64,000 bases of DNA from Proteromonas lacertae (Eukaryota), in the NCBI GenBank assembly GCA_002245135.1, contig NGBS01001166.1, positions 186,001 to 250,000 of the forward strand, read 5' to 3'. Below are positions 7,115 to 64,000 of the stretch, piece after piece; the stretch's first letter is position 1, and each line of letters starts with the position of its first letter. The notes under the pieces were generated by a model. It made no database searches and had not been told where the DNA came from. It saw nothing but the letters and a program-made list of their open reading frames with translations. The position numbers were made by a program, and so were the translations under genes.

Positions 7115-7976
7115 ATGGAAGATATGTATGAGCAAACTAACTCTGCTTTCAAACATTCATCTGAAGCTGAATGTCTGAACCCAACATATAGACCAACTAT
7201 GGAAGATGTTCATATAATCGTTGATCAATTCTGCGATAATCCCAACCAAGCATTTTTTGCTGTGTATGATGGTCATGGAGGTATAATATATTTTCTATAT
7301 TTTAGGAAGTGAAATAGCACACTATGTTGGTGAGCATTTCCACACAAACCTAGCAAAAAATATGAAAAAGAATAAAGATTTAACAATAGAGAATAATCTT
7401 AAATTAACATTCCTTGAAACAGACATAATGAGTAGAAATCAAGTCTATGGTCAATCTGGTGCAACTGCCGTATGTCTTTTCCTTCATGAAGGAGAAAAAG
7501 GTCAAAGAACGTTATATTCAGCCAATATTGGTGATGCTCGTGCTGTTATTTCAAAAGGTGGTAAAGCCATAAGACTTTCATTTGTATTTAATATGTTATT
7601 TGTTATATATAAATAGGATCATAAAGCTGGAGATGAGAATGAAAAGACAAGAATAGAGAATTTAGGTGGTTTTGTAAGAAATGGTCGTGTTATGGGTATA
7701 TTAGCTGTTGCTCGTTCATTTGGTGATCATGGACTTAAAGCTTATGTTACTGCTGATCCTTTCATTAATTCAATAAAGATTACAAAAGATTGTGAATTTA
7801 TAATAATAGCTTGTGATGGGTTGTGGGATGTAGTTGAAGATCAAGCTGCTGTTGATTTTGTGAAGAGAAAATTAGAAGAAAAAGAGAAACCAACTCATAT
7901 TGCTCAATTGTTGGTAGATGAAGCTATAGCTCAAGGAAGTCAAGATAATGTTACAGTATTAGTGATATTTTTGTAA
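7115..7976 (+). CDS. Protein phosphatase 2C (PPM family)
   Basis: RPTMED, FFAVYDGHGG, SGATA, ANIGDARAV, LAVARSFGD, IACDGLWDV and GSQDNVT. Confidence 0.97.
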
Positions 7977-26989: not shown

Positions 26990-29900
26990 ATGTCAACCAC
27001 AAATCTACGGTTAAAGAATTCTAACTCAGTGCCTACATATCAAACTCCTCTTTCGAGTGTTCCTAGCCGATTAACTCAAGCGGAACACTCATCTTCTTCA
27101 TGCCTTCAAGTTGAACCAGAACATGTTATTAATTTTGATGGTATAAACAAATAATTTTTATATTATTATTTTAGTTCAAAGAGGATACTCTACATTTAAT
27201 ATTGTGACTTTAAGGAATAAAGATTATGAAAATAATTTAGCATTCATCACAAAAACAACAGCAGAACATATAACATCTAAACCAAATTGTGGTATTCTGA
27301 AACCACAAGAATGTATTTCAATCACCATATCTATAATGTCTGAGAGTGTTTTAACATACTTTCAAACAGGATTAGATAATATAAATGACAAATTTCTAAT
27401 TAAATATGTAAAGTGCAACAAATCAGATATTACAGATGAAAATGAAGTAATTTTAGAAAAAGTATTCTTAATTATATTATTTATATAGTTTCGTAAACAT
27501 CAATGGAATAAACCAATAAAGAAAATGATTCTATCAATCAAACTGAATGAAAGAGAGTATATGGAACCTGTTAAATCATTCATTATTCCACCAATATCCA
27601 ATAATTCATCATATCAATCTTCATCACCTTCATTTAATAACAATAGTAATAGAAATAGATCTGTACGTAATAATAACAATAATAATCATACATCAATAGC
27701 GAATAGAAGCAGTATAATTACACCCTCTCCATTACATACATCTTCATCGACAAATACACCAAAAGCTGCAACAAATGACGACATAACTAATTCAACAACA
27801 TCTCCTAAATCTAATATAAATATATCATCTATTATTGTTACACAGAATCAATCAAGTCAATTACAGCAATCACAACAACAACAACAACAAGAATCATTAT
27901 CTCATTCACCATCATCATCTTCATCTTCACCTAATAAATATTCACTATTAACACCAGAGATAACTAACACAACAACAGCAAGTGCTACTACATTAGAATC
28001 AAGATGTTCATTAATACGAAATAATAATAATAATAATAGTAATGTAGATGAATGTAATAGCAGTGTTAAACATACCAATATAAAATCACCACTGAATGCA
28101 ATCACTAGTAATTCTGATTCAATATCATCGCTATTAGATGATTTTGGTAAAGTAGAAGACGATACAGTACCGTGGGTGAAAGGATTGCCAATTGGAAAAG
28201 GTGTAATGGGAACAGTCTACAAAGGAATGCATAAACTAACAGGCGATCTATTAGCAATTAAAGAAATAATACTGAAACAATATGATAATAAAATAATAGA
28301 ACAAATATCAACAGAATTGGCTATATTAAAGAATATTAGACATATAAATATAGTTCATTATTATACTACACAAATTATTAAAGGTAATGATACATCTCCA
28401 GCATATATTAATATAATAATGGAATATGTATCAGGTGGATCTTTAGCAGATATTATTAAGAAATTTGGTAAAATATCAGAAGATAGTGCAAAAACATTTG
28501 TTCATCAGTTACTACAAGGTTTAGAGTATTTACATGAGAATGGAATAACCCATCGAGATATAAAAGGTGGAAATATTTTACTCACAGAAACTGGTATAAT
28601 AAAGATATCTGATTTTGGTACATCCTGTTCTATCTTCCACGATGATCCTTCTAAGAATAATATGCAAATTGGAACTCCACAATGGTGTGCTCCAGAAGCG
28701 TTAAAAGATCAATCGTTATTAGAGCCAAAAGACTGGAAGAAAGCAGATGTTTGGTCAGTTGGTTGTTTTATATTGGAGATTATTACTGCTGAACCTCCTT
28801 GGGGTATGTTTGATAATACTCAGAATGCAATATACAAGATTGTTGAAGCGAATACTCATCCACCAATACCAGAAGATGGTATTAGTGACGATCTTAGAAA
28901 TTTTCTAGAAAAATGCTTTGTAATTGATCCAAAGAAAAGACCTACAGTTCAATCACTGTTAGTGGAGAAATGGTTACATAGTGAAGAAGTTCGAAGAGTT
29001 TTGAATAATATTGATGTATGCATTAAATTATTTATTATATTATAGAGGCCTCAAACAGCAATTCCTCATTGTAACAGTGATTTAGTATCTCCAGTACATG
29101 GTGCAGGAGCTGTAGAAATCCAAGAGAATGATTTATTCGTAATGAAACGAAAGAATAAAGAAAAGAAGAATTATTTAGGGATATTCTCCAGTAAGTATAA
29201 ATCAAAGAAGAAAACAGTATTAACAATGGGAGGAGTAGCGAAACAGGAGAGAGTATTATCTGCATCAGTTGCTGATTGTTATTATCCACCAATTGATAAG
29301 AAATTAAATGAACAACAACAACAACAATCACCACCAACTCCTCCACTGAAGGTTCCAGTAACTCCACATGATTTTGAAGTTCAAGCTATGTTAAAGAAAA
29401 GTACATCCAATACAAGTAGTACAACTGTATTACCAGATATTAATTCAAAACAGAATAAATGTTCTTCATCAACTCATAAAGATGAAGAAAAACAGTCAAA
29501 GTTCAATTATGATAATTCTACAATTAATAAACTAACGAGAGACAATAAAAGACAGCCAATTTCATCAATATATAAAGAGTCAAAGGAATTAGTAGAAACA
29601 TTACGAATATCATCATCCGATGTGATAATAATCAAGCATGAAAGAAACAAATCAACAGATACAAGTGATGAGAAGATAATCACAAATAGAACATCAAAAT
29701 CACAAGAAAATTCAGATCCAATAAAGAACAGTAAAGATCATTCAGTAAGTCCATTAAAGAAATTAAAATCAACCAAATCTGGATTAATGCGTATATATTA
29801 TTTTTATTATTATTATATAAATAGATCCACCAATACCTCCCATTCCAGATATATCAATAGTAAATGTCAATACCAACAACACAGCATTAGGTAGACCAAT

Positions 29901-33801: not shown

Positions 33802-35261
33802 ATGTCTTTTTTGGTTTGTAGAGATATAAAATATGCAGTTATTCGTAGATTAATAGCGTCGTTCAGAAATTTGAGATCAGGAGTCTCAACTCGTATATAT
33901 TAAATAATCTATTGAATAGTTGCTCCAGAATCTGAGGCAAAGAAGTCTAAATCATTACCAATATATTTAGATTGGCAAGTATGATGAAATATCAACATTA
34001 TAATCTATTTTAGGCAACAGCAATGTTAGATCCTCGAGCATTGGATGCTATGTTACCATACATGACTTATCAATTTGGAAATCCACACTCAAGAACACAT
34101 AAATACGGATGGGACTCTGAGGAAGCCCTAGAAAAAGCAAGATCTCAAATTGCTCATTTAGTTGGTGCTAATCCAAAAGAGATAATATTTACATCAGGAG
34201 CAACAGAATGTAATAATTTGGCTGTAAAAGGGTGTGCTAATTTTTATAAAGAAAAGAAAAATCATGTTATTACAACTCAAATAGTATATTTTCTATTTTA
34301 ATTCTTTTTATTTTAAATTGTTAAATAGGAACATAAGTGCGTATTAGATAGTTGTCGTTATTTAGAACGTCATGGATGTACAGTAACTTATTTGAAGGTA
34401 AATAAAAACGGTTTAATTGATTTAAACGAATTAGAATCATCAATCACTCCAAAGACAGTATTAGTCTCAGTGATGGGAGTCAACAATGAAATTGGTATAA
34501 TGCAACCGTTAAAAGAGATTGGAAAAATCTGTCATAAACATGGAGTATTTTTCCACTCAGATTGTGCACAAATGATTGGTAAGGAACCAGTGAATGTGAA
34601 TGATTTAGGAGTTGATTTAATGTCAATGAGTGGACATAAAATATATGGTCCAAAAGGTATTGGTGCTTTATATGTTAGAAGACAACCTCGAGTTAGACTT
34701 GAGCCAATTATTAATGGTGGAGGACAAGAAAGAGGTCTTAGAAGTGGCACTATGCCAACTCATTTGGCTGTTGGGTTTGGCAAGGCTTGTGAAATTGCTG
34801 AAAAAAGTTTGGAGTTTGATCATCAAAGAATAAAGAAATTATCTGATAAATTAATCAATACTTTACAAAAGAATGTATTTATATTATATTATATTAAATA
34901 GTTGACTCATATTACCATTAATGGTGATAGAAATCATTGTTATCCAGGTTGTATTAATATCTCATTTGCTGGTGTTGAAGGTGAAAGTTTAATATTGAAA
35001 TCTAAGGATGTAGCTGTTTCATCAGGTAGTGCATGTACTAGTGCATCATTAGAACCATCTTATGTACTAAGAGCTATTGGAGTTAGTGATGATTTAGCTC
35101 ATACTTCATTAAGAATTGGTATTGGTAGATTTACTACTGAGAAGGAGATTGATTATGCATGTAAGAAGATTATTGATTCTGTGAATAGTTTGAGAGAGAT
35201 AAGTCCTTTGTGGGATATAATTCAAGAAGGAGGTGATTTATCTAAAATGAAATGGAAATAA
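33802..35261 (+). CDS. NFS1: Mitochondrial-type cysteine desulfurase
   Basis: [47 protein letters not shown] and [17 protein letters not shown]. Confidence 0.98.
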
Positions 35262-41016: not shown

Positions 41017-43221
41017 ATGGAACAGAATCCAGGTTTTATAGAAGGTTTAAAAGTACCTGATTATCAAAATGAAAAACGTATTTATTTAGTGTTATTGTAA
41101 ATAGAGCAATGCCTGAGTTTTCTAAGAGATTTTACTAGTGATGATCCTGAAACAAAACAGCCAATAAAGAAATATATGAAACAAATTGATTCTATTGCTT
41201 CAAGGGAAAGTTCCAGAGTTCTTATTGAATTAGACGATGTTTTTGCTATGGGTGATGATGTATTACTCGACCACATTGAAAATAACACAAGAAGGTATGT
41301 CAATATATTTGCTGATGCAATTGATGAATTAATTCCACAATCAAATCACATAATCGATAGTACTAGTGATATAGCCGATATTTTGGAAGCACATCGAGCT
41401 TCTTCAGGGGAAGGTGCACAATTGCCAAAATCATTAACACGTAGATACCAAGTAAACTTCAAAGCAAGAAGATCAATCAAACCAAGATCAGTAAGAGATA
41501 TTAAAGCATTAGATATTGGTCATTTGACTGTATTAAAAGGTGTAGTAACTCGTGCATCAGCAGTTAAACCACTAGTCAGAGTAGCTGTCTACACTTGTGA
41601 TGTTTGTGGCTTTGAAATATACCAAGAAGTCGATAGTAGAACATTTTTACCATTAACCGAATGTCAATCACAAAAATGTAAAACCAATAATCAAAAAGGA
41701 GATTTACACTTACAAACAAGAGGTAGTTCCTTTGATAAATATCAGACTGTTACAATACAAGAATTAAGTGAACAAGTTCCAAGTGGTGATACTCCCAGAA
41801 CAATGACATTACAATTACGAGGAAATTTAACAAGAAAGTGTTCACCTGGTAATATTATTACATTTAGCGGTATTTATTTACCAACACCTTATACTGGATT
41901 TAGAAGAATGAAAGCTGGATTAATAGCTGATACATATTTTGAGGTATTAGATTTAGAACAATATATACAGAACTATGAGAATACTGAAATATCGAATGAT
42001 TTAGTTGAAGAAATAAATGAAGCTAAAACTGATTCTAATTTATATGAGAAATTATCTCAATCTATTGCACCTGAGATATATGGTTTATCTGATGTAAAGA
42101 AAGCATTGTTATTACAAATGGTCGGTGGTGTGAGTAGAACAATGTCAGATAAGATGAAAATTAGAGGTGATATTAATATCTGCATGATGGGAGATCCAGG
42201 TGTAGCAAAATCACAATTGTTGAAATATATAGCAAATATATCACCAAGATCAGTCTACACAACTGGTAAAGGTAGTAGTGGAGTTGGTTTAACTGCTGCT
42301 GTGATTAAAGATCCAATTACCAATGATATTGCATTAGAAGGAGGTGCCTTGGTATTAGCTGATAATGGTATTTGCTGTATTGATGAGTTTGATAAGATGG
42401 AAGAAAATGATCGAACATCTATCCATGAAGTAATGGAACAACAAACATTATCTATTGCTAAAGCTGGTATTACAACTACATTAAATGCAAGAACATCAAT
42501 ATTAGCAGCTGCTAATCCAGTAGGAGGTAGATATAATGTTAAGAAAACTCCTCAAGAAAATATTAACTTACCTGCTGCTTTATTATCCAGATTTGACTGT
42601 GTATTTTTATTACTTGATACTCCAAATGCTGAAAGTGATAAATATTTATCTCAACATATATTGCATTTACATCAATATGGAAAAGCACCTGATATTGGTT
42701 TTGTACCTTTTAAACCTGAGTTTTTAAGAGCTTATATATCAGAAGCTAAACAAATATATCCAACCATTTCACCTCAAGTTGCGCCTTATATTATAGAATC
42801 CTATATTCAATTGAGAAAGATAGATAATGAAGCATCTAAAGGAGATAGAGTTAAATCATTGATCACTCCTAGACAATTGTTGTCGATACTTCGATTTGCA
42901 CAAGCATTAGCAAGATTAAGATTTAGTACCACTGTTGAACCACCTGATATTGATGAAGCTGTTAGAATAGTGAGGATGTCAGCTAATAGTAGTGAAGTTG
43001 ATGAAGATAGATCAGCATTTAGAAATGATCCTTCTTCAAGATTGTATAGTTTGATTATTGAGAAAATGAAAGGGACAAATTCTATAAAAATGGCTGATAT
43101 AGAGAATTTTGCTACTTCTAATGGCTTTAGTAAAGAACAATTTGATAATTGTATTAAAAGTTATGAAGATATGGGTATTTGGCAAAGAGCACGTAATTCT
43201 ACTACGCTAGAGCTTGTTTAG
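41017..43221 (+). CDS. MCM7: DNA replication licensing factor MCM7
   Basis: NTRRY, YTCDVCGFEIYQ, MKAGL.ADTY, GDPGVAKSQLL, IDEFDKM and NLPAALLSRFD. Confidence 0.97.
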
Positions 43222-43411: not shown

Positions 43412-46400
43412 ATGAGTTTGTTTTCATTCATTCTGTTTGTTAGTTTAGTTTTAGGTGGTGTAGATGATGCTGTAGGCTATGTGTTTAACAGTCCAGGAGG
43501 ATCATTAGAGCTATATATAACAGAATTTCTTCCATCTCTTGGCTTTAAAGCCCCTGCTTCATTTTATTATGTTACAAGTTCTAATGAGCAAGATTTAGAT
43601 ACAGAAATCGTTAAACTTGCCAAAATCAACAAGAGAGTGATTTTCGGTTATGTTCCCCAATTCAAACCCAGTATAATCAATAAAATTGCAAAAAAGAATT
43701 CTGTCGTTTTTATTACACCAGCAGTATCAACAGAAGACAGTTGCTACAGTAATCTAATTCAAGGGTATTCTGTGTGCAAATCAATTTCAAGAATATTAGA
43801 GTTAATTAAGCATGATTATAAATCATTTACTATCCTTTATGATTCACAATCGAACATTAATAATTGTGCAAATCTAATACATGAGTTTCTAAATTATAAT
43901 TCATATACGAATCCATCTATAACAGAAATTGTTTCTTCCTCAGATATAGATGTTTCTAGTATAAGTAGTGATGATGTAATTTTAAACTTTCTATCAACAT
44001 CATTATCAAATAGCTTATACTCTATTTCACCTCGATCATTTAATATTATTGGATTTCAAAATATCGATATTCAACAGCATGATTTAACAAAAATGACAGA
44101 TACTTATATAGCTAGTGAAAGTAATGATGATTGTGGCTCTATAGACTATGCGACATCATCATATCCATCACCAAATATTGAACAATTTTCACTGTACATT
44201 TATAATTATTTAATTTATATAATTTTCATAGAGGTCAATCACTATTTCTATTTTTAGAGAATGCCAAGAATATTGGATTTAAAGGTCATGTTGATTTACA
44301 CAAATTATTGACATTGACACAATTTTCATTCAAATCATCAACTATTACCTTATTACCAAATCTAAGACTATCTAATAGAATATCACTCTCTAAAATAGAT
44401 AATAGTAATAAATTTATTCCAATACAGAGTATTCCAGGAATTAATGGCATATATTATAGCGATATATTAGATAATCAATATGAAATGATATGTGACATAA
44501 CAAACTACAATGATGAAGTTAAATCAACTGATTATTACGTTATATTAATAACATATTTAACTGGAGATTTATCAAAATATGATTCAAGTGTTAAAACTGG
44601 ATTAAAAATAGCATTAGAAATATTAAACAATGATAATCCAATATTGAACAGAAATACTCATCCAATCTATATGGATGCAAATAGTAATAACTTAAATGAT
44701 GAAATAATTCATTATATTAATTCATTTAATGTTATTGCTATTTATACTACAATGGAATTTACTGATTTTGAAGTATTTACAAATACTGCAAATGAAACAA
44801 TATTTGAAACTCCATTTATATATCTCAATCTAGTACCAAACGAAATAGTGAGTGATAAATACTTCTTAAATGGAATGAATATAGGAAATTTATGGAGAGA
44901 AACTAAAACAGCATTAAATCCTAAAAACATATTCTTTATAGGCAGTAAAGGAACAGTATCAGCAAATGCAATATCTTATATATCCTATGATGCTTCATTG
45001 AATGGAATTAATGTTAGAGGTAGTTATATATTAGATAGTAATACATACGAACATGCTGTAAATGCGTGTAATGAGATTGAAGCAGAATGTAAACTACATA
45101 GTGATTGTTATATTATTACATTTATGGAAAGGAATTATACTTTGAAGTTTTATGAAGAATATAAGATTGCAAGATTAATATATCCAATTGTGTCTTATAA
45201 TTTAGATGAATTAATGATTAATTCTGTTAATAAAACATATGTATAATTATATTTTTCTTTTTATATTGTATTTAGTATGAAAACCATTATGTTATTGGAT
45301 ATTTCTTCAATGAAATGGAACTATCAGATGATGTTGATAATCGATTAAGCGATTACATTAAATCAAATTCATTTTATAAAGATTTTATTGTTACTTCAAA
45401 CACAGCTATTTTATATTCAGAAATAATGCTATTATCATCTGTATATTATTGTATTCTAAATTATATGAATAGGTTATTGATATTACAAGGCAAATATCCA
45501 AAGAAAAGATTAAATATTCAATGAAATATGGTTATGTAATAGGCATAGGAGGTGTAATAAAAGGAAATGATGAAGGATATGCTGATTTTAATGTTCATAC
45601 AGGAAAGATTAGTAATGGAAAGATAGAAGAAATTAGTAAATCATTTTTTGTAGAAGTATCAGCTGTCTTTAGTGATTCAACCAAATATTATGATAGAGAT
45701 TCAAACCAGATTAAAACAAGAGAAGTTAAGACAATATCTTTCTTATATGTGAGAAATGAAAAGAATGAAGATAGAATCAATCATTATGTATTATATGATT
45801 CATTTGTGATTGAATATTTGAATAATCAATACAATGGTGTAGCTGGTTATAGAATAAGAACAGCATTTCCTGAATTATATAGTAATGAAGACTTAAAGAA
45901 TTATGTTCAATCTGTTGCTAATAGTGATGATTTATTGTTATTTGTTGGTACTTTGACTTTTGAAGAGAGAGAATCAATTCAACAGCTGTTGATTGATAGT
46001 AATAAGTTGTTATTGAGTATTCATCCTGCTGTTGGAAATCAATGTTATAGAAATATTATTCAAATATCATTTTTTTTCGTTTATTTTTAGCATTTATCTG
46101 TTTCTATAATTCTAGTTTATTTTGGAGTATTGCCTCAACATTATATATTTACAATTATTGCATATTGGTATAAACACAGTAATAATTGCATTATGATATA
46201 TGGAGATAATGAAGTTAATAAACACACAGCAAATTACACTTTAAAATACACTGAAGAAATAAAGAATTATAAATGTGTTGGTGTATATGTATCAGATAAT
46301 TCAAATCTTACAGAAATCATTGAAAATGAAATTGTCAATAAATATACTGATGGTGCTGCAATAATAACAGCTTTAGATGAAAGAACAGAATCATTTCTAA

Positions 46401-47265
46401 TAGAAATGAGTAATTATAGTAGCAGTAATAATTATCTTTATCCAATTATAATCACTGATTATATTGAATATAAATACTTCGAATTAAAATATAAAGAATA
46501 TTATGAGAACGTTTATTTTACATCATCTTATTCATATCATTTAGATAATGAAGAAACAAGAACAATGTCAGAAACTATTACTAGTTACTATGGCAAATCA
46601 AAAGAACTAATGACAACAACAACACTTACATTATATTCTGCTTTGAGACTATTTACTGAAAGTTATCCAAATAATTATAACAACAACAGCAATGAAATAA
46701 GATATAACATGTATGATACTGTTATTACATCTCCAATGGGTAAGATTATTGTTGATACAAGTAATCTAATGAGAATGTATACAATGATGATTCAGATAAA
46801 GAATAATAACAGTGAAATAATACTAAGTTCTGATTATAGCTATTATGAATCACAATTTGCAGATATTGTATAATTTATCATTATATATATATTAATAATA
46901 GTTTAATAATGAATATTTAACATGTCATTTTGAAGAAGGTTCAATATCTGATGTAATAAAGGAAGAGGTTCAAGAAATAGGTATTTGGCTTGAAGATGAT
47001 GAAAGTGTTAGATTCACAGTTCAAGAATATCTCTATTATAATAAGTTCACATATGGAACTACTTATGTTGAAAAAACAGTATATTGTTCTGATGAAGAAT
47101 CGATATTTAAAATGGTTAATGATAGTTCAATATCATATATACTTTCAACATGTAATAGAACAGTCAATTCAAATATTGCTGAAGTTGCTAATGAGAAGAA
47201 TGTAAATATATTCATTTTAGAAGATCAATATGAACCAATATGTGAAAAGAGATTGTATATAATAT

Positions 47266-47297
<32 letters not shown>

Positions 47298-50200
47298 GAA
47301 ATAGTATGGTATTAGGATCTTCTCCTTCACAAAGACTCATTCCTCTAATTCAATATTTATTTACAGTAGTTGATTCAAATGTATATGTCATTATTCCACT
47401 TGCTTTCAACAATTCAATTGAAATTGATATGATACAAACCACAGTTGATGTAAATGGAGGTAAAGTAATTCAAATCCTATTCATTGATGAAGAAGATGAT
47501 AGTAAAAATGTGGCAAATGAAGTGAAAATCAGTAGTTTAATAGCTTCAATTTATAGAAATGGCAATACAGGTGGTATTATACTCAATTACCTTCATAAAT
47601 ATGATAAATACTTATTTATATATCTTGAAAATATGTTAAAATATCATACGCTTGGTCAAAATGAAAAAGAATCTGAATTTATCATTGTTTCAATGGATAT
47701 TGATAGAATCTTGGATATTGAAAATCCAAAGTTATTGGATAATCATGTTGCTTTAGGTGTGTCATACATAAGTAAAGAAACTAGTAAATTCTTATATGAT
47801 ATAAGTACAAATACATATGGAGAAGGAAATATATTAAAGAAAATAGAATCAAGAGGTTTAATTGCTATTGAATTTATATTAACTGTTAGTGTATTATTAG
47901 AGAATAGTGAAAATCATGATTTCATGGATTATATTCATATCAATGAGATTACCACATCTTTAGGAAATATTAGAATTGATTATGATAATTATTTTCCTTC
48001 AATAGTTTCCATATATGTTGCAAATACTACAAATATATTACATATAAGATATGTTTTATCCAACCAATGGCCTGGTGAAACTTATAGAATAACTTATCAA
48101 AATATCACATTATTTCCTTTTTGTGATGTTACAAATAAGAATAAAATTCAAGATAGATTGTCTATTAATGTCATTCTATTTGTTCCATTGCCAAGTAATT
48201 ATAAATTAGAAGGATATAGAATGTTACTCTCTTACTTATCAATAATTGATTATATTAACAAAAACTACAGAGTTAATGGGTTATATATAAATCCAATCGT
48301 TATTGATACAAAGGGAGGGTATGAAATAGTTAGAGAGGTATTATCAAAGATGTCAATAGAATATAACACCAAAATAGCATTGGGAATTGATAATAGTTTG
48401 AATAGGAAAGAAATAGCAAATGAATTAGATGATTATGATGTATTATTAGTATATCCAAATGATTTTGAAGGATATGAATGCAAAGAGAATATTATATACG
48501 TTGGAGTTCCATTTGCAGCTAAAGTAACTTACTTACCATGGATCTTAGGTCATTTAAATAACAAAATTTATGTTGTTTATACAGATTCATATGATAATGA
48601 TGTTATTTCTAAAATGATTAGTCATGAGTTGAATTTAAGAGGATATTCTATTGTTGGTATTTCAAAAGTACCAGAAACTAATTATATACTAAAAGAAGTG
48701 GTCAATATGGTACATATGAAGATGAGAAATGGTGGTGTAATATTATCATTCTTAAAAGGAAATGCAGCTAAAGAATTATACAAAGCATGTTATGATGAAG
48801 ATATTAAATATCCAAATTACTATATTATAAGCGATAATTTGAATGTAGCAAATATAAATAATGATGAAGGAGTGTATATGATGAATCATTATATATGGAA
48901 TACTTATCCTGAAGAGTATTATGATGTGGAAGAATATGTTAATGTTTATAACAACAAGTATACATTCATTACAAATCATACAACTAGTTTCGTTCCTGCA
49001 TTTCTTTCTGTTAAAATATTAGCATTAGCATTTCAACATATTACATTCAATGAGAATTATTCTTCTGCTTTTACAGTTGATTCTATTCTCAATAAAGTTC
49101 ATAATGTTTCAACATCACAGATTAAAATATATAACAACAATTTCGCATCTTTTACTTTGAGTATAAAACAGATTAAATATAATGAAACTTCAAAACAGTG
49201 TTATGGAGATATAATCTATAAATATCAATCAAATTCAGAACCAAATCCTTGGGCATCTACTTACAATCTAAATGGTAAATTTATATGTGATTGGAATGAA
49301 TCAAATCCAAATAAAAATGAAACAATTCCAGTGGATGCTGTTTCAATTGCATTAGTATTTCCATTAAGTGATCTGGAATTAGGTAGTTATGCAACTGATA
49401 TATTAGAATCAGCCATATCAACATTATCTGAAATAAATGATAAAAATGGAGGTGTTAATGGTTTGTATATTGATTACATTGTTTTTGATTATAAATATGA
49501 AACTGAATCAATACTAACTAAGATTGCTTATGATATATTAGAGAATGAAAATATTGTGTCTGTTTTTGGATGTTTGAGTGAAACTTGTAAGAATATTATT
49601 TCCAGTATATTGCAACAGAAATCAATTTCATTATGGTATCCAGGAACAGCATATTGTCTCAGATATGATATCTAAAATTGGTAATATAAGAACAGCAGTA
49701 TTCTTTTATTTAAGTGGATCTTTATCATCATCAGTTTTACATGAAATAGAAAATCAAGGTATTAGTTTATCTACAGTTAATCTAATTCTAATGAGATTTT
49801 CAAAAGCTGATTATTCAGATGAATTATTGATGAAATTATCAGGAGCTTTAATACCAGCAACTTATTCTTCAGATTTATCAAGTCCATTAGCAAGATCATT
49901 TCAATCAGATATGAAAGGTGGATTAGGAAATACAGTAGAAATACCAGAAGAAATGGAATATGTATATTCAGCCTTGCATTTATGGAAAAATAGTTTAGAA
50001 ACTAGTATAAAAGACAGTGGAGGTGATATAAACCCGCCAATTGAATATATTCGATTGAATATGATTGATAAAACATTTACATCTCCATCTGGTCCAATGA
50101 TCTTAGATAAAACATTATATGTAAAGAGAAGTATGTATGTATTTAGAGTTAGTGATGATGGTAAATTTATTCAAATATATCCAAAGACAGGATCAACTGT

Positions 50201-51469
50201 ATTATATGATCCAATTCCATATCCAGATGGTGTTCCAGCAGAATGTAATTTTGGTAAAAAGAAAGTATATTTTGAATATAATACCATGATGAAAGCTGTT
50301 GCTTATGTGTTAATGAGTATTGCAATAGTTTTATCATTTTGGTCATTGTTATTCACATATGCATCAAGAAATAAAATGATTATTAAATCATTTGGTAGAT
50401 CTTATAGTTTTATATTTGCAGTACAGTTGTTGATACTATCATTAGCAGTAATACCAATGGCAATTGCACCAACTAAAAGTAATGGGATTTGCACAGCAAG
50501 AGTTGTATTCTTAGGTTTATGTGTAAAAGGAGTGTTAGGTTTAATGATAGCTAAATGTATGAAAATATATAACAGATATAGAAGATTGAAAAGAAACATT
50601 AAAAAGAGTAGAATAAAAATGGTTAGATTATTATTTACTTGGTTGTTTTTTGAATTATTAGAATCATTAATATTGATATTGTGGTTTACTTTAGATCCAA
50701 ATGAATATGAAGAAACGTATAGTCAATCTCTCAGTGGTTATTTTTTCGATGAGTATATTAGAGAATGTACTACATCAACTCCATTTTTGTATATAATATC
50801 TATTATATATTTCATGAATATATTTCTAGAATCGTTGAATTTATTACTGATGGAATTCCATTAATAATTCTGTTATATATCACTAATGTAATAAAGAATA
50901 AAATTAATGATCATAATGAAGGAACAGCAATGTTTATTTCTAGTTGTGTGATATATATCTTTTTTTCATTAACATTTATCTTGTTATTAGCTTCATCTTA
51001 ATGTTTTTTACCTGTTTTTGGTGTTGTTATGACTGTATTAGATTTTTATGTTAATTCAGAACCTAATACTGTTTTGTTATTAAGAGCAATGGGAATTGAA
51101 ATTACTCAAATTTTAATGATTATGTTACAATATGGAAATATCTTTTTTTTTACACAATTTTCTTAATGATGTTATTTAATTCTATTGTTTACTAAAAATG
51201 ATTAATGTTTATATTGATGATGATTCAAACAGAATAACACAATCAGGCAGCCAAGCAAGTAAAACTGAAAAGAAATATCCTTTTCATATCTTATTCATCC
51301 TATTTATTTTCTTAATTTATTCAATCTGTTAGATTCTTCCCATCATTCTTCTAACTCTCAAAACAAAACTCAAACCTCTACATTCCTTACATCACACATG
51401 AAATCTATGTTTACAACATCTACATTAAATGCAATTACAAAAAATCAATCATCAAGGAAGTTGTTATAA
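43412..51469 (+). CDS. Giant class-C-like 7TM receptor with about 6 tandem AmiC/UrtA-like periplasmic-binding (Venus flytrap) domains
   Basis: Signal peptide MSLFSFILFVSLVLG; repeated motifs such as EIN..NGGVNG, VFGC.S, YPNDFEGYECKENIIYVG and F.SPSG; C-terminal hydrophobic helices with C..R, L...K..KIY and HNEG; frame break at about 49640. Confidence 0.75.
51138..51192 (+). other. U12-type AT-AC intron, 55 nt
   Basis: ATATCTTTTT donor, TTTTCTTAAT and TTATTTAAT branch candidates, 3' TAC; gives QYGIKMINVY at the end of the last TM helix. Confidence 0.8.
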
Positions 51470-51523: not shown

Positions 51524-54500
51524 CTATTTAATATTATAAAAATGGTTTGATAATTCTTTCTTTAATTCTTTACCAATTCCATCTATTGTTATTGATTTAA
51601 GTGATGAAAACGATTTTAAAAACGATACTAATTCTAATTTATCTATCTCTTCTTTTATTGTTATTGTTAATAGACTTAAACATTCAAACACTTCTTTGTC
51701 TTCTGTCATCAATCTTAATTCTTCTTCATTTAACTTATTTCCTGATAGATTTATCTTCTGCAATGGCTTATGAACTTTTAATCTTTCTATTAACATTTTT
51801 AATCCTCTTTCACTCATTCCTATATCTATTTCAATTAAAAAACTATGTTATATTCATAAAATACTTGAAATATTTAATATTAATGAATAATTATCATCAA
51901 TAAATTTATCAAAATTTTCACAAATAATCTCTATTCCTTCATCTCCAATTGGATTGTTAAATATTGAAATATAATTTAAATCTTTTGGTATAGATTGAAT
52001 TAATTCTGATAATCCTTTATAACTGATATGATTATTGGATAAATCAAGTGTTTCATAATCAATCTGTTTTATGATGGGAATGTGAGAATCATTGATATTT
52101 AAATCTATTGCATTATATACCTTGATTTAATACTGGATAAATCATAGTATTTATACATATCACTTTTTTTAGTACAATAGTCTAGATAATACTCCAATTC
52201 TTTATTTTTCCAAGATGAATTTTTCATCTGAATGAACGGATATTCTTCATTTTCTAACGATTTTGAACATATTGATTTTAATCCATTCATTTTGATATTA
52301 TTCTCATTGAGATTAATTACATTACACTCTCCAATTAAATATAATATATCTGTAAACATTACGGCACTTTCATCATTTATTGATGTATTACTCAAATTAA
52401 GATCACTGTCTATCATTATATCCAACTTCTCTTCCAACAATTTTAATCCAATATTACCAATCGGATTATCTATTACACAGAATAATAAAGATTATATAAC
52501 AATATATATATATATATATATATACTGTTAATAATTAATTGTTCAATATTATCATTCTCTTTCACATAATTCATTAAATAATCTATACCTTTTGAATCAA
52601 TATTATTATCAGCTAAATCAAGTACTTCAATCTTTTCATCAGCAATTCTTAAACCATCAACTAAATATTTCATTCCTAATGACGATAATCCCATTTCTAT
52701 AAAACATTTATAAAACAACAAACTATACTCGAACAATTCAGATAACTTCCTAATAAATGGATATGCAGAGATAAAATTCTCATTCCTTCATCTCCTATTT
52801 CATTTTCATATAATTGAAGTTCTTTTAGATTTGGAAATGAAGATAAATTGTTTATCAGTATTTCTACACTTTCACATGTCAGATTATTATCTAAACAAAT
52901 GGAAATTTAAAAACATACAACTCAAATCTAACACTTCTATTTCTTTAAATTCATTTAATCTTAAAGTAATGAATGATTTGAAAAAATCATCATTAATTCC
53001 ACAATGATTCAGATTTAATCCATTATTTTTGTATTTGACAAATTTAATTAACTCTGGAATATCTTTGTCAATCAACAATTCTTTATTTCTTCCATAAATA
53101 TCAAATACTATTTTTGAAATAGAAAATTTTGAGAATACTGCTTTTAATCCACTAGAATAAATATCCCAGTTGTATGTAATATTTATTTTCTTTAGATTTG
53201 GATATTTAAATAACTCTTCTGATAATATTATCATTGATTTATCATTTAAATTCATTCCACAAAGATTCAATTCATTCTTGTCATTTATTAATAAATGAAA
53301 TATGGAATTAATAATTTGAATCCTATTGGACCAATTGGATTATCTATTTCATAATAATCAATACAAATAGAAAAAAATCAATACATTCAAGATTTACATA
53401 TTTAAGTTTCATAAATGGAATTGATTTTACAAATGATTCTATAAAACGATATGTAAGATTACAACTACATAAATTCAACTCTTGCAGATTTGATATTTGA
53501 TTATATAATGCTCCAAATAAAGGCTGGTATCTGATCTGAATATCAAGAATTTCTAAACAAGTAAATAATACTACAATAATACCAAATTTTAGTTTTTTAA
53601 AATTGGATAGTTTTAGTAATCTAAAAAAATAATCCATCCCTTCTTCACATAAACAAACACAAAGTTTATTAGCAATGACTCTTTCATTTAAATAATGAAG
53701 AAGGAGATTGAAAATCATTTCATCTAAACAACAAATCTTGTTTTCTTTGTTTTTGTGATAAATTTGAAATTTCAGTTTATCTTTTATTGATTCATCTCTT
53801 TTGATTAGTTTCATCATTAATAATATCGATAATATTCTATCATTTGGTTTATTGTTGTAAGATTCAATCAAACCATCTCTCATTAATTCATTCTTATTAT
53901 ATTCTATATAATAGTCTCTTTGAGTATCTAATGGAGTTATTTCTAGTAAATAATCATTATTGAAGAATGTATATTTTCTTTCATTATATATCATTATATT
54001 ATTATTTTCATCTCTAAATATTTCACTCACTTTTATCATTTCTTTTCTCAACTCTTTTAAACTCAATCTTTCTTCATTCTTCACATTCAACATTCTCTCC
54101 ATCATCTCTTCCATCATATCATCACATTCTACATCTATACGATATTTACATCTCAGAATTTTATTCAGTGTTCTGTTGATATTATTATCTTCATTAAATG
54201 GTAATTTTTTGTTTATCATTTCATATAATATACAGCCAATAGACCAAATCACACTTTTATCATTACATTCTAATCCATTCAATTCTTCAGGGCTTTTGAA
54301 GCAGATATCATATAATCTTATATCTTCTTCTTTTCTCAATGTGTTTAAAAACAAATCACAGATCTTTATTTCACCTTCACTTTCATATACTATGTTACTA
54401 CTCTTCAAATTGTTTATTATTACATCATATTCACTCAATACCACTAATATATCACATATTGAACATATAATAGCACAAATATCACCAGTTATCAACGAAT

Positions 54501-54820
54501 TATTATGAATTATTTCTTCTAAGTCTCTTTCATAATATTCTCTTGACAATATCATATGATCACCATATTTATTCATCTCAAACACTTTTGAAGGATATAA
54601 TAACGATTTACAACTATCTAACAACAAGGAGTCAGTCTCATAGAATTTTAATATATTCTTTTCTTTTATATCACTAACATTTAACATTTTCAATTTTTTA
54701 ATATTACTTCCATATTCTACAACTATATCTACTTCAGTTACACTCTTTTCTATTCTCTCTTTTAGCTAATAATAATAAATCAATAAAAATACATCTGAAT
54801 TTGAGGGTAATATCGAGGAT
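51524..54820 (-). CDS. Pseudokinase + ribonuclease-inhibitor-type LRR protein; 5' end apparently cut by the viral insertion
   Basis: NNLKSSN, CDLF, SPE and IWSIG kinase remnants; LRRs NPIGPIG, NEIGDEG, NNIDSKG, NPIGDEG; the frame extends upstream through a 27-nt intron to the element edge with no ATG in that upstream part. Confidence 0.75.
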
Positions 54821-54842
54821 AGTAATAATAATAGTAAATAAA

Positions 54843-54891
54843 GGTTCTGGCACACCGAGCCGTATGACTCGGGCTCCTGGCACACCGAACC
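54843..54891. repeat. GC-rich subterminal direct/inverted repeat
   Basis: CTGGCACACCGA at 54847-54858 and 54877-54888, with complementary arms GGTTC/GAACC and GAGCC/GGCTC. Confidence 0.9.
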
Positions 54892-54972
54892 AAACTTTTT
54901 AAAATTACGTGACATATGTCATATTAGGTCATAATTTATTTTTGCATTTTCTAGAATATTCTAATTTCATAT

Positions 54973-55281
54973 ATGGATAATCTAATTAAAGAAGAAGCAG
55001 AAAATGGTTTTGATTCTTTATATGAAATGTGTAATGTATATCTCAATAAGAATGATGATGGGAGCAATGACTATCAAACATCAATTAAAATAGCATGTGA
55101 GATTATATTAAAATTAAAAGAATTAAATGAAGAATATCATTTAGGATTAGATGATATGGTATTACATCAAATAGGAAGATTAGAAGGGAAAAAAATAGCA
55201 AGTCAATATTTACAAAAAGAATTAGAAAAACAATTAAATGAAATAATACCAAGTTTAAACAATATGTTAAAAATCAAATAA
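54973..55281 (+). CDS. Element-encoded hypothetical protein, 102 aa
   Basis: Intronless ATG-TAA ORF, amphipathic helical pattern, no recognised motif. Confidence 0.65.
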   Translation: MDNLIKEEAENGFDSLYEMCNVYLNKNDDGSNDYQTSIKIACEIILKLKELNEEYHLGLDDMVLHQIGRLEGKKIASQYLQKELEKQLNEIIPSLNNMLKIK

Positions 55282-55289
55282 AAAATTAA

Positions 55290-55763
55290 TTAGTCTTTAT
55301 CATCTTCCAATCTGTTTTTAAAAATATAATATATAGAATTTAATTCTGAATTTGTATCGATTAAATAGAGATAATGATTTTTTATATATCTAAAATTTTT
55401 AATAGTATTTGCATTCAAATTGAAATCTTCTTCAGAAATATATGCAAAATCTTCTACATAGAAAGTGTCCAGTTTATTAATTAATTTTTCTAAGTCTTCT
55501 ATAATATCCAGTCTATAAGATGTTAATTCAGATTTGTTAAATGTGGTTGCTATTTTACTTCTGTTATATTTCAATTCGATATTTTGTATGAAAGTTACAA
55601 AAGACTTTATTTTATCTCTTAGATCTGTTTTATCTTTACTACTAAAATTTTCACTTAGATTTAATTTATAGACCCTTCTACTTATATCATTTAAACTACT
55701 AATATAATTTTTAAGTACATCAAAGAATACATAGAATTCATATACTCTAGCAAAATTACTCAT
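55290..55763 (-). CDS. Element-encoded hypothetical protein, 157 aa
   Basis: Intronless ATG-TAA ORF convergent with the previous one, 8 bp apart. Confidence 0.7.
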   Translation of the reverse strand: MSNFARVYEFYVFFDVLKNYISSLNDISRRVYKLNLSENFSSKDKTDLRDKIKSFVTFIQNIELKYNRSKIATTFNKSELTSYRLDIIEDLEKLINKLDTFYVEDFAYISEEDFNLNANTIKNFRYIKNHYLYLIDTNSELNSIYYIFKNRLEDDKD

Positions 55764-55996
55764 ATTTTTTGGTATAAATTAATTAATTAATTAGATATAC
55801 TACTAATAGAAATTGTTCTTCCAATTCAAATCTGATCCAAAGAATATAATATAATTCAAGTAAAAGAAAGAAATATAAAGCAATAATATAAAATAATAAA
55901 TATAAGTCGTAAAAGAATTGATATATAACTTTTAGAAATTTCTAAAAGAATAAAAATAATAATAAAAATATAAAAAATTAATTTTTAATTTTCTAG

Positions 55997-58900
55997 ATGA
56001 ACCCTTTCATCCCTCCTTATTATTATTATTCAAACTTTAATTATTATAGTCCACCACCATTTGGAGCACCTTATATTCCTCCTCCACAAAATTATGGATT
56101 TAATCCCATGCCCATGCCATATCCAGGTATGGCACCTCCTAATATGTATGAACCACCTCCACCTATTCAAAATATTCCAGTAGTTAGAAATTATGTTCCA
56201 CCAAGAAATCTAGTTACAAATACAAATCCTGGTTTCAATTATTATCCTGGAAATATAGGAGTAGATTCAACACCTCAAATTAATATTCCTGAACCAGGAT
56301 TTGTAACACCACCTCCCAAGAGAAGATTAGATTTCGAAAACATAAGTCCTCCAAAAATACAAAGAAAAGGAGGTATGCAGGTTCAAATGCCTAATCCAAA
56401 TCCTAATCCAAATCAACCTGTTGTTGTTGTTAATCAACCTCCACCAAATGCACAACAGCGTAATAGAGTAGCTGATTTAAATTTATCTTATCAAGAAGAA
56501 AGAGATTTAAGAGAAGCAAGTGATATATTAGAAAATCATCCTACTAAATTATTAAAATTACCATATGAAAAGAGATTATATTATATGGACTTAATTCAGA
56601 GAAGTACAGATAATTATAGTAGAACATATCAAATTAACTTTTTAAATGATGTAAATGGTAAAGATCCAGATGCTGTTGTTGAAATTATAACTGATCCTAG
56701 TAGCCCATTAATTACTAAAATAAGAGAATATTTAGAAGATGTTAAATATATAAAAGTAACATTAAGTTTTAGAAGTGGTTATATAGGAGCAGACGATCCA
56801 GATTATAATAATCCAAATGGTAATAAAATTACAAATTGGGTATTCTTAGAATGTAGACCTGTAGTTATTACAGAATCAGAAATGAATGTTGCACATAAAA
56901 TATTAAAAGATAGAATAAGAACAGAAATGGGACCTTTATGGCATACTGAAAAATCAAGTTTAAAATTTAGACATGTTGGTGAAGTTGAAGTTCAATTAGT
57001 CAAAGCAACTGCTATGGCAGGTAGTGGTAAAAATAAAGAACTTCCAGATTGGATTAGAAATAGAAAATGTGTTATATCAATAGATAATAATAAAGAAAAT
57101 GATCAATTATGTTTTCTATATGCTATAGCAGCAGCATTTTTTCATGGTAATAATAATAATAAGAATTTAAATAGAGTAGAACAATATAAAGAATATATTA
57201 GAGTTAACTACAATTATAGTATGTTATATTTCCCAGTAGATCCTATAAAACATAAAAAACAAATTCATGAATTTGAAACAATAAATCATATAACATTAAA
57301 TATATTCAAAATAACAGATAAAGAAGTAGTTCCAATATATGTAACACATATAGATAAGTTCAATAATTATCCACATGTGAATTTATTATATAATGATAAA
57401 CATTATTCTACTATTACAAAATTAAATGTAATATTAATACCTAAAGGAAAGAAGTGTAAAAATGGTTATCCTAGATGTAATTATTGTTTTGCTTTATTAT
57501 CAACAGATGAAAAAAGAATACAACATGAAAAATATAATTGTCAACAACATAAAGGTATTATAAGAAATTTCCCTGAGAAAAATATTCAATTAGAATTTAA
57601 GAACTTTAAATATATGCAACTAATACCTATAGTAATATATTGGGATACTGAAGTTTATCAGGAGAAAGTAACAGATCCAATTTTAAATGAGAAAGGTATT
57701 TTATCAAAGCATATATTATCCAGTTGGTGTTTATATGTTGTATCAAAATATCCTAATATATATCCTAATAAAATTGAGTATGATTTTAAAACACCTAAAG
57801 ATAATGAAACAGATTTAGAGGATAGATTAATAGCTAAATTTATGGAAATACAAAAAGAAATATTAGATTTATATGAAGAAAAATTAAAAAATCCTGAAAA
57901 AATGATAGGATATAATAGAGAAGATCCTAAAAATAAATTGAATTATTGCATATACTGTAAAGAACCATTTGATTATAGGAATAAGAATAAGAAACCTGTT
58001 TTACACCACGACCACTTTAGTGGACAATATATAGGTAGAATATGTAATAATTGCAACTTCCATGTATGTTTAAATAATATGCCAATCCCTTGTATTGCTC
58101 ATAATTCCAAAAATTATGACAATAATTTCATTATTAGAGGATTGTCCAGATGGGATAATAAGTTAAGAGATGAATTTTGTAAAGAAAATAATATTGATCC
58201 TAATGTAAATTATGCTTCAGATACTGAATCTGATAGTGATACTGAAGAAGAAGATAATACTAGTTATACTAATTCTATTCCTGTTCCACATCAAGATAGT
58301 GATACATTTACTCCATTACCTCCTTATACTAATGGCTTTATAACAGCAAATAAAATAAAAGATTATGTGAAAAATTTAAGAAAAGAAAAACAAGAAGAAA
58401 AAGATGATAATAATAATTTCAGTATGAGTCCATTACATGATTCTTTAAGTGATATGGAAACTCAAGAAGCTGAAAGTGAAGTAATCCAAATTAATAATGA
58501 AGAAGTTAATGCATTGTTAGAATTAGAAGAAATGTTAAGAAGAGATAGTCCTAGAAATGCAGAAGATGTTATAGATGAAATAGATGAACAATCTGCTTAT
58601 AGAATTATTAAATGTAAAGATGGTAAAATAAGAAAATATAAAAACAAAAAACAATATAAATCACAATTATCAGTATTACCCAAAACAGATAATAAATTTT
58701 TATTAATAAAGTTCAACAAATTATACTTTATGGACTCTTATCAATTCTTACCAAGTTCTTTAGATTCTTTAACAAAGTCATTATATACTCAAGCAAAAAG
58801 AGATAATGGAAATTATCAAAAATATTTCAGTTATGTATATGAAGATATTTATAAAAAATATTCTGCTCCTGGTAAATTGGATCATGATATGAATATTGAT

Positions 58901-63648: not shown

Positions 63649-64000
63649 TTTAACTAATTATAATTAAAAAATTATGTAAGTGTTTGCTATTATTATATAA
63701 AATAATACAACTAATAAAAACAACAAAAATATTTAAAACAAATACAGAAATAAAGAATAATATTTTTATGAATATCAGTAAATATAAAAAATATTTATAT
63801 ATATTTATATAATATATTTATATTTTTTGAAAGACTTTTTAAATAATTCAATTTGTTTTTCACCAGTCTGAGTATTAAAATTAGTGCTTTGCTTAAAACT
63901 TTTATTTTTCTTTAATATATTTTCTAAAAATTTTATAGCAAAAAATCCACAATTTGATGTTGTGGACTTTTGATTTTGAATAGCATTAACTTTTAACTCA

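Follow-up and report, generated by a model that had tools for sequence, protein, structure and literature searches.

A Polinton/Maverick-type element and the 5' end of a predicted pseudokinase-LRR gene: a candidate insertion at a first coding exon

Where does a host gene begin when its large exon opens without a start codon, a short distance from the genes of a mobile element? The question is raised by a locus near the right-hand end of the window, by which we mean the whole stretch of 64,000 nt of Proteromonas lacertae DNA that was analysed here. On the minus strand, a gene for a kinase-like protein with LRRs reads away from the element, and its beginning might have been removed by the element, might lie inside it, or might never have extended as far. 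The explanation we favour, to which we attach a probability of about 0.45, places a young Polinton on the 5' end of a host pseudokinase-LRR gene, from which it has likely taken away the original start. The features of the locus are collected in Table 1.

Table 1. Features of the locus, with coordinates in the window and the basis of each assignment
Feature	Position	Strand	Basis or remark
Downstream LRR exons of host gene	51524-53343	-	Introns 53384-53344 (41 nt), 52918-52891 (28 nt)
Large host exon: degenerate kinase-like domain and first RNI-type LRRs	53385-54765	-	Pfam Pkinase, homologues
Candidate first intron, 27 nt, GTATTT...ATTAG, phase 0, ends in in-frame TAG	54766-54792	-	Fit to intron class
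Nine-codon stub SSILPSNSD, likely first-exon remnant	54793-54819	-	Frame continues over the candidate intron into exon 2
GAGGAT, candidate 6-bp target-site duplication (TSD), left copy	54815-54820	+	Letters read
AGTAATAATAATAGTAAATA, candidate left terminus	54821-54840	+	One of three AG-starting candidates
49-nt G+C-rich block with 15-nt direct repeat	54843-54891	+	Likely subterminal non-coding part of element
Perfect 12-nt palindrome TGACATATGTCA	54910-54921		Contains minus-strand in-frame ATG 54915-54913
ORF102, 102 aa, without recognisable family	54973-55281	+	ORF; element membership likely, assumed
ORF157, 157 aa, without recognisable family	55290-55763	-	ORF; element membership assumed
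Protein-primed DNA polymerase of family B (pPolB), 1638 aa	55997-60913	+	Pfam PF03175
Retroviral-type integrase, 455 aa	60998-62365	+	Fold (Foldseek on AF2 model)
C-terminal 64 aa of ORF leaving window (..NCGFFAIKF..)	63805-64000	-	Possibly adenain-like protease

Gene content of the element

The element is recognised by two genes. The product of the first, pPolB, matches the organellar/viral type-B polymerase domain PF03175 of Pfam with E = 8.4e-18 and a score of 64.9 bits (cut-off 25.8). In a collection of 5.8 billion proteins it has 83 relatives, of which the closest (P0047) is 62% identical and the next 44%, both from read assemblies; the remainder form a broad set at about 30% identity that includes named insect proteins with PF03175. 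These relatives are Polinton-type polymerases. The polymerase at this locus is longer than most of them, which measure 982–1596 aa, and most relatives cover 43–57% of the query, that is, its C-terminal half or so, P0047 alone being aligned over the full length. Ahead of the PF03175 match lie about 850 aa of N-terminal sequence (55997-58600), which open with a Pro-rich low-complexity stretch.

The second gene encodes a product for which searches of Pfam and the PDB returned no sequence match. Its six relatives in the same 5.8-billion-protein collection are 45–61% identical and all come from raw-read assemblies; in their alignment (A1), D, D and E-like columns are conserved, together with a YTPNEVY block. 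The AF2 model built on this alignment has a mean pLDDT of 50, with roughly 50–80 per 10-residue block across the core residues 140–310, and the best Foldseek matches of the model are the integrases of HIV-1, PFV (foamy virus) and MVV (visna virus), at E ~3e-9 and a probability of 1.00. As modelled, and identified by fold only, this product has a retroviral-integrase (DDE, RNase H) fold, and it appears to represent an unannotated integrase lineage. According to PMC5499653, a protein-primed PolB and a retrovirus-like integrase are the two genes that define Polintons; because both pPolB and a retroviral-type integrase are present here, the element is of Polinton/Maverick type by gene content. Both reading frames are intact, which suggests that the insertion is young.

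Neither ORF102 nor ORF157 has a match in Pfam or Atlas, or a significant one in PHROGs. The fragment at the right-hand edge of the window resembles what we take to be the Cys motif of adenain, and may be part of an adenain-like protease; it has no match in Pfam, the PDB sequences or PHROGs. About 9 kb of the element falls inside the window, its right end lying beyond 64000; the genes that Polintons have for an adenovirus-type protease, a packaging ATPase and the capsid proteins (major and minor) are likewise expected past 64000. No inverted copy of the element's left end occurs within the 64-kb window. In viral_contigs, searches guided by the pPolB protein, by its alignment and by that of the integrase found no relative, and a search of genome_contigs (prokaryote genomes) found just one fragment of 143 nt (L025).

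A 23-nt similarity (83%) between 54933-54955 and 55975-55997 was considered as a signal within the element and set aside as likely chance, TTTCTAGA being found in host DNA as well. Both copies end in TTTTCTAGA, a short way ahead of where ORF102 and pPolB have their ATGs, and the similarity could be a promoter motif shared within the element, or chance.

The host gene and the beginning of its large exon

To the left of the element lies ordinary host chromosome. Two neighbouring genes at 45521-50864 (plus strand) encode periplasmic-binding-protein-like domains, the second also a class-C (7tm_3) receptor domain; MCM7 is found at 41176-43221, and elsewhere there are genes for coatomer epsilon, for Nup85 and for a second kinase, this one canonical. 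The large exon of the gene that adjoins the element opens on the minus strand at 54765, with a TAG directly upstream; from there 473 codons are open, with no ATG until residue 27 (54687). The exon matches Pfam Pkinase with E = 3.4e-20, over profile positions 61–259 only, and no part of its first 58 residues falls within the Pfam kinase match.

A search among homologues for longer forms of the kinase exon returned distant bacterial kinases only. A full-library HMMER search recovered a small family at 25–50% identity (alignment A2), whose members all come from Logan assemblies, on genomic contigs of 1–4 kb. The position of the catalytic-loop Asp (HRD motif) is occupied by Asn in nine of the ten aligned sequences, and the members are probably pseudokinases, judging from the alignment, fused to RNI-type LRRs; the term 'pseudokinase', which the first-pass annotation had applied to this gene, is thus a fair prediction. 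The family (the host exon and P0136–P0178) is without a glycine-rich loop.

The homologues bear directly on where the gene begins. P0137, which is 48% identical, aligns from its first residue (protein 1–297 with query 1–293), with MKEKLEK against LKERIEK at residue 1; hence, the host exon is homologous to coding sequence over its first 26 codons, although none of these is an ATG. Of the nine clusters aligned with the window, four have their predicted start no more than six residues from the 54765 column (P0143 at -1, P0137 at 1, P0141 at 3 and P0164 at 6), and the other five start at query positions 13–36. Among these nine clusters, all of them ORF-level calls, none has an N-terminal extension beyond the host exon. 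Three times the initial M of a shorter member stands against an L or V of a longer one (P0287 against P0137, P0325 against P0140, and P0308 against P0178), which indicates that TTG or GTG starts were read as M and that a tiny upstream exon would be invisible in calls of this kind. As evidence on an upstream exon, the start positions in the alignment are therefore ambiguous.

Taken at face value, they would suit a gene that never had such an exon. The family would then start at 54765-54763, where this copy now reads CTA, the element would lie in the 5' flank, and the apparent intron and exon ahead of it would be chance features of an A+T-rich leader. The methionine of P0137 aligned with the leucine at residue 1 of the window, and the starts of P0143, P0141 and P0164 close by, all speak for this, as does a kinase-like domain that begins at about 54765 and makes an N-terminal extension unnecessary. 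The present copy would have lost its ATG and would use Met27 at 54687, or else would be a recent pseudogene; the LRR exon that follows the 41-nt intron has an apparent 1-nt frameshift between 53339 and 53288 on the minus strand (..GFKLLIPY / FHLLINDKNELNL..), with no GT..AG pair to restore the frame, which would fit a decaying copy if it is real, and which is either genuine or due to a mistake made in assembling a T run. Against this stand the character of the homologues, ORF-level calls on contigs of 1–4 kb in which M was given for TTG or GTG in three clusters, and the five of nine clusters that start 13–36 residues further in. Moreover, the change from ATG to CTA takes two substitutions, and 473 codons downstream have meanwhile stayed free of stops, so that decay of the start codon by drift fits poorly. 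We consider a gene start at CTA with the element in the flank rather unlikely, and the same low standing applies to its combination with a lost ATG or a recent pseudogene.

What lies immediately upstream of 54765 argues further for an exon beyond it. The first-pass annotation had read the minus strand here as ..SSILPSNSD (54819-54793), a 27-nt GT..AG intron (54792-54766) and LKERIEK.. from 54765, and this reading was reproduced. For comparison, 24 introns in the window were identified with confidence, each joining long open frames (examples are 7281-7305, 27462-27488, 34875-34901 and 52918-52891; long ORFs are obtained with the standard genetic code). They measure 25–56 nt (median 37.5), begin with GTAT in 23 of 24 cases, end with TAG in all 24 and are 76–94% A+T, a class within which the candidate, at 89% A+T, falls. 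A partner resembling an intron start was found upstream of 146 of the 1896 TAGs in the window, and of 6.6% of those in block-shuffled sequence. If the element lay in the flank, a TAG at position -1 with a GTAT 27 nt upstream would be a coincidence of roughly 1–2%, an estimate obtained by multiplying the 6.6% by the estimated share of TAG among the bounding stops. Since the intron fits its class, the coincidence is rare and loss of the start by drift fits poorly, an upstream coding exon is favoured, and we regard its existence as fairly probable. The stub SSILPSNSD itself scores +0.40 per codon for host codon usage, against a host mean of 0.32, and is too short to decide the matter.

The candidate terminus and the DNA beyond it

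If there was an upstream exon, the next question is where host sequence gives way to the element. The letters read by the first-pass annotation as a target-site duplication and a left terminus, GAGGAT followed by AGTAATAATAATAGTAAATA, are as it gave them. Neither sequence is distinctive in this DNA. The window contains 17 copies of GAGGAT, where 24 would be expected; AGTAATAATAAT occurs three times exactly and 58 times with at most one mismatch, against 5.0 expected from shuffles, its near-matches being abundant because AAT microsatellites are common in the window. Two other positions provide ends that start with AG and are equally admissible, at 54833 (AGTAAATAAAGG) and 54841 (AGGTTCTGG).

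The ends of vertebrate Mavericks are reported in PMC8097293 as (AGT)2 or (AG)3 with TSDs of 6 bp, and for Polintons in general PMC10748475 gives TSDs of 5–8 bp and TIRs of 100–1500 bp. The candidate end reads AGT AAT AAT AAT AGT. It resembles the vertebrate elements in starting with AG or AGT beside a possible 6-bp duplication, and differs from them in that its motif is neither (AGT)2 nor (AG)3, AGT being unrepeated at the extreme end. The coding character of the minus strand also changes here: for the seven codons YLLLLLL over the candidate terminus the host-codon log-likelihood is -0.43 per codon, against +0.40 for SSILPSNSD, which weakly favours a junction near 54820.

A junction at exactly 54820/54821 would give the element a 5'-AGTAAT.. 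end and a GAGGAT duplication, and predicts a right end that reads ..TATTTACTATTATTATTACT, with GAGGAT and then the missing first codons after it. Its AGT start has the form of one class of Maverick end motif (PMC8097293), and the codon score changes sign at about that point; on the other hand, AGT occurs only once before the sequence turns into a common AAT microsatellite, and the AG starts at 54833 and 54841 are as valid. This precise placement is doubtful, and we conclude that the junction probably lies somewhere within 54794-54842.

From 54843 onward the DNA is foreign and non-coding in character, and is not host coding sequence. The G+C-rich block that begins there lies in surroundings of about 23% G+C and contains CTGGCACACCGA twice, at 54847-54861 and 54877-54891, 30 nt apart and nested in short inverted repeats (GGTTC..GAACC and GAGCC..GGCTC). 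The block occurs nowhere else in the window, and none would be expected by chance. It may be a putative binding site in the end of the element. No Rfam match was found at the gathering or E-value thresholds, ARAGORN found no tRNA, and the folding of 54815-54905 is no better than that of shuffled sequence (z = -0.99). Scanned for the G+C-rich motif, viral_contigs gave no match; the 24 loci found in metagenome_contigs were rejected, as all are tandem repeats without relation to the block (23 lie in DNA of 45–69% G+C, and L023 at 34%).

The minus-strand frame nevertheless runs on through this block. The first-pass annotation had described the host frame as free of an ATG up to the proposed junction, and this holds as far as 54820 only; beyond that point the frame continues for 32 codons and reaches an in-frame ATG (54915-54913) that a stop precedes by two codons. 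The first exon might be complete and begin at this ATG, in which case the end of the element would lie further right (for example within 55764-55996) and ORF102 and ORF157 would be host genes, or the exon would be chimeric, with a start codon and perhaps a promoter taken from the terminal region of the element. Consistent with such a start are the frame itself, which has no stop between 54918 and the donor at 54793, the 233 nt between ORF157 and pPolB, which could hold a short TIR, and the failure of ORF102 and ORF157 to match any Polinton family in Pfam, Atlas or PHROGs. However, the 41-codon open frame had to be discarded as evidence of coding, since all three minus-strand frames are free of stops from 54898 to 54793 and the openness is hence compositional; an in-frame ATG precedes a stop in 974 of 5000 local shuffles (19%). 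The 25 codons from the ATG to 54841 have a GC3 of 0.64, a value outside the host coding range and reached by none of 1083 host windows of 25 codons (mean 0.17, maximum 0.56). Only 57 nt separate this ATG from that of the diverging ORF102, and no homologue has an N-terminal peptide of the kind. A first exon, complete or chimeric, that starts at 54915 is distinctly unlikely.

One form of a start within the element deserves separate mention. The end of the Polinton could have been taken over as a first coding exon of the host gene, read from the ATG at 54915 through the G+C-rich repeat and the junction, spliced by way of the 27-nt intron onto the kinase-like exon and transcribed from the terminus of the element. 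As with TE-derived first exons, a chimeric N-terminus could arise here from the in-frame ATG in the end of the element; we nonetheless judge such a takeover very unlikely.

Insertion at the 5' end of the host gene

Our preferred explanation remains an insertion that removed the original start. A Polinton/Maverick-type element would have entered, or landed just ahead of, a short first coding exon, at a point within 54794-54842, and the original start codon and promoter would thereby have been separated from the large exon. Under this explanation the 27-nt stretch 54792-54766 would be spliced out, the 9–16 codons upstream of it would be the remnant of the first exon, and the missing start would be expected beyond the right end of the element. 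As the host exon is homologous from its first codon, has no start of its own and is preceded by a typical candidate intron, a start lost with the first exon is a reasonable reading.

The first-pass annotation had proposed in the same sense that the element decapitated the gene. This proposal survives in part: a Polinton does adjoin the gene, and the main exon does lack a start and follow a typical candidate intron; it is weakened by the frame that runs on beyond the proposed junction to an ATG, so that strictly the gene still has a start, and by homologues that are without an extension. As in TE insertions that truncate or re-head host genes, a host exon without its own start is found here beside the end of a large element.

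An insertion of this kind is an ordinary event, and its boundary is a prediction. The value of the finding lies in that predicted boundary, for which the rest of the contig is needed. If the junction is confirmed, the locus would provide a clean, young case of a Polinton whose insertion disrupts or re-heads a gene of its host, a compact, A+T-rich eukaryote that has introns of 25–56 nt, and it would supply an end sequence for a Polinton lineage whose integrase, with its six relatives, has so far been unannotated.
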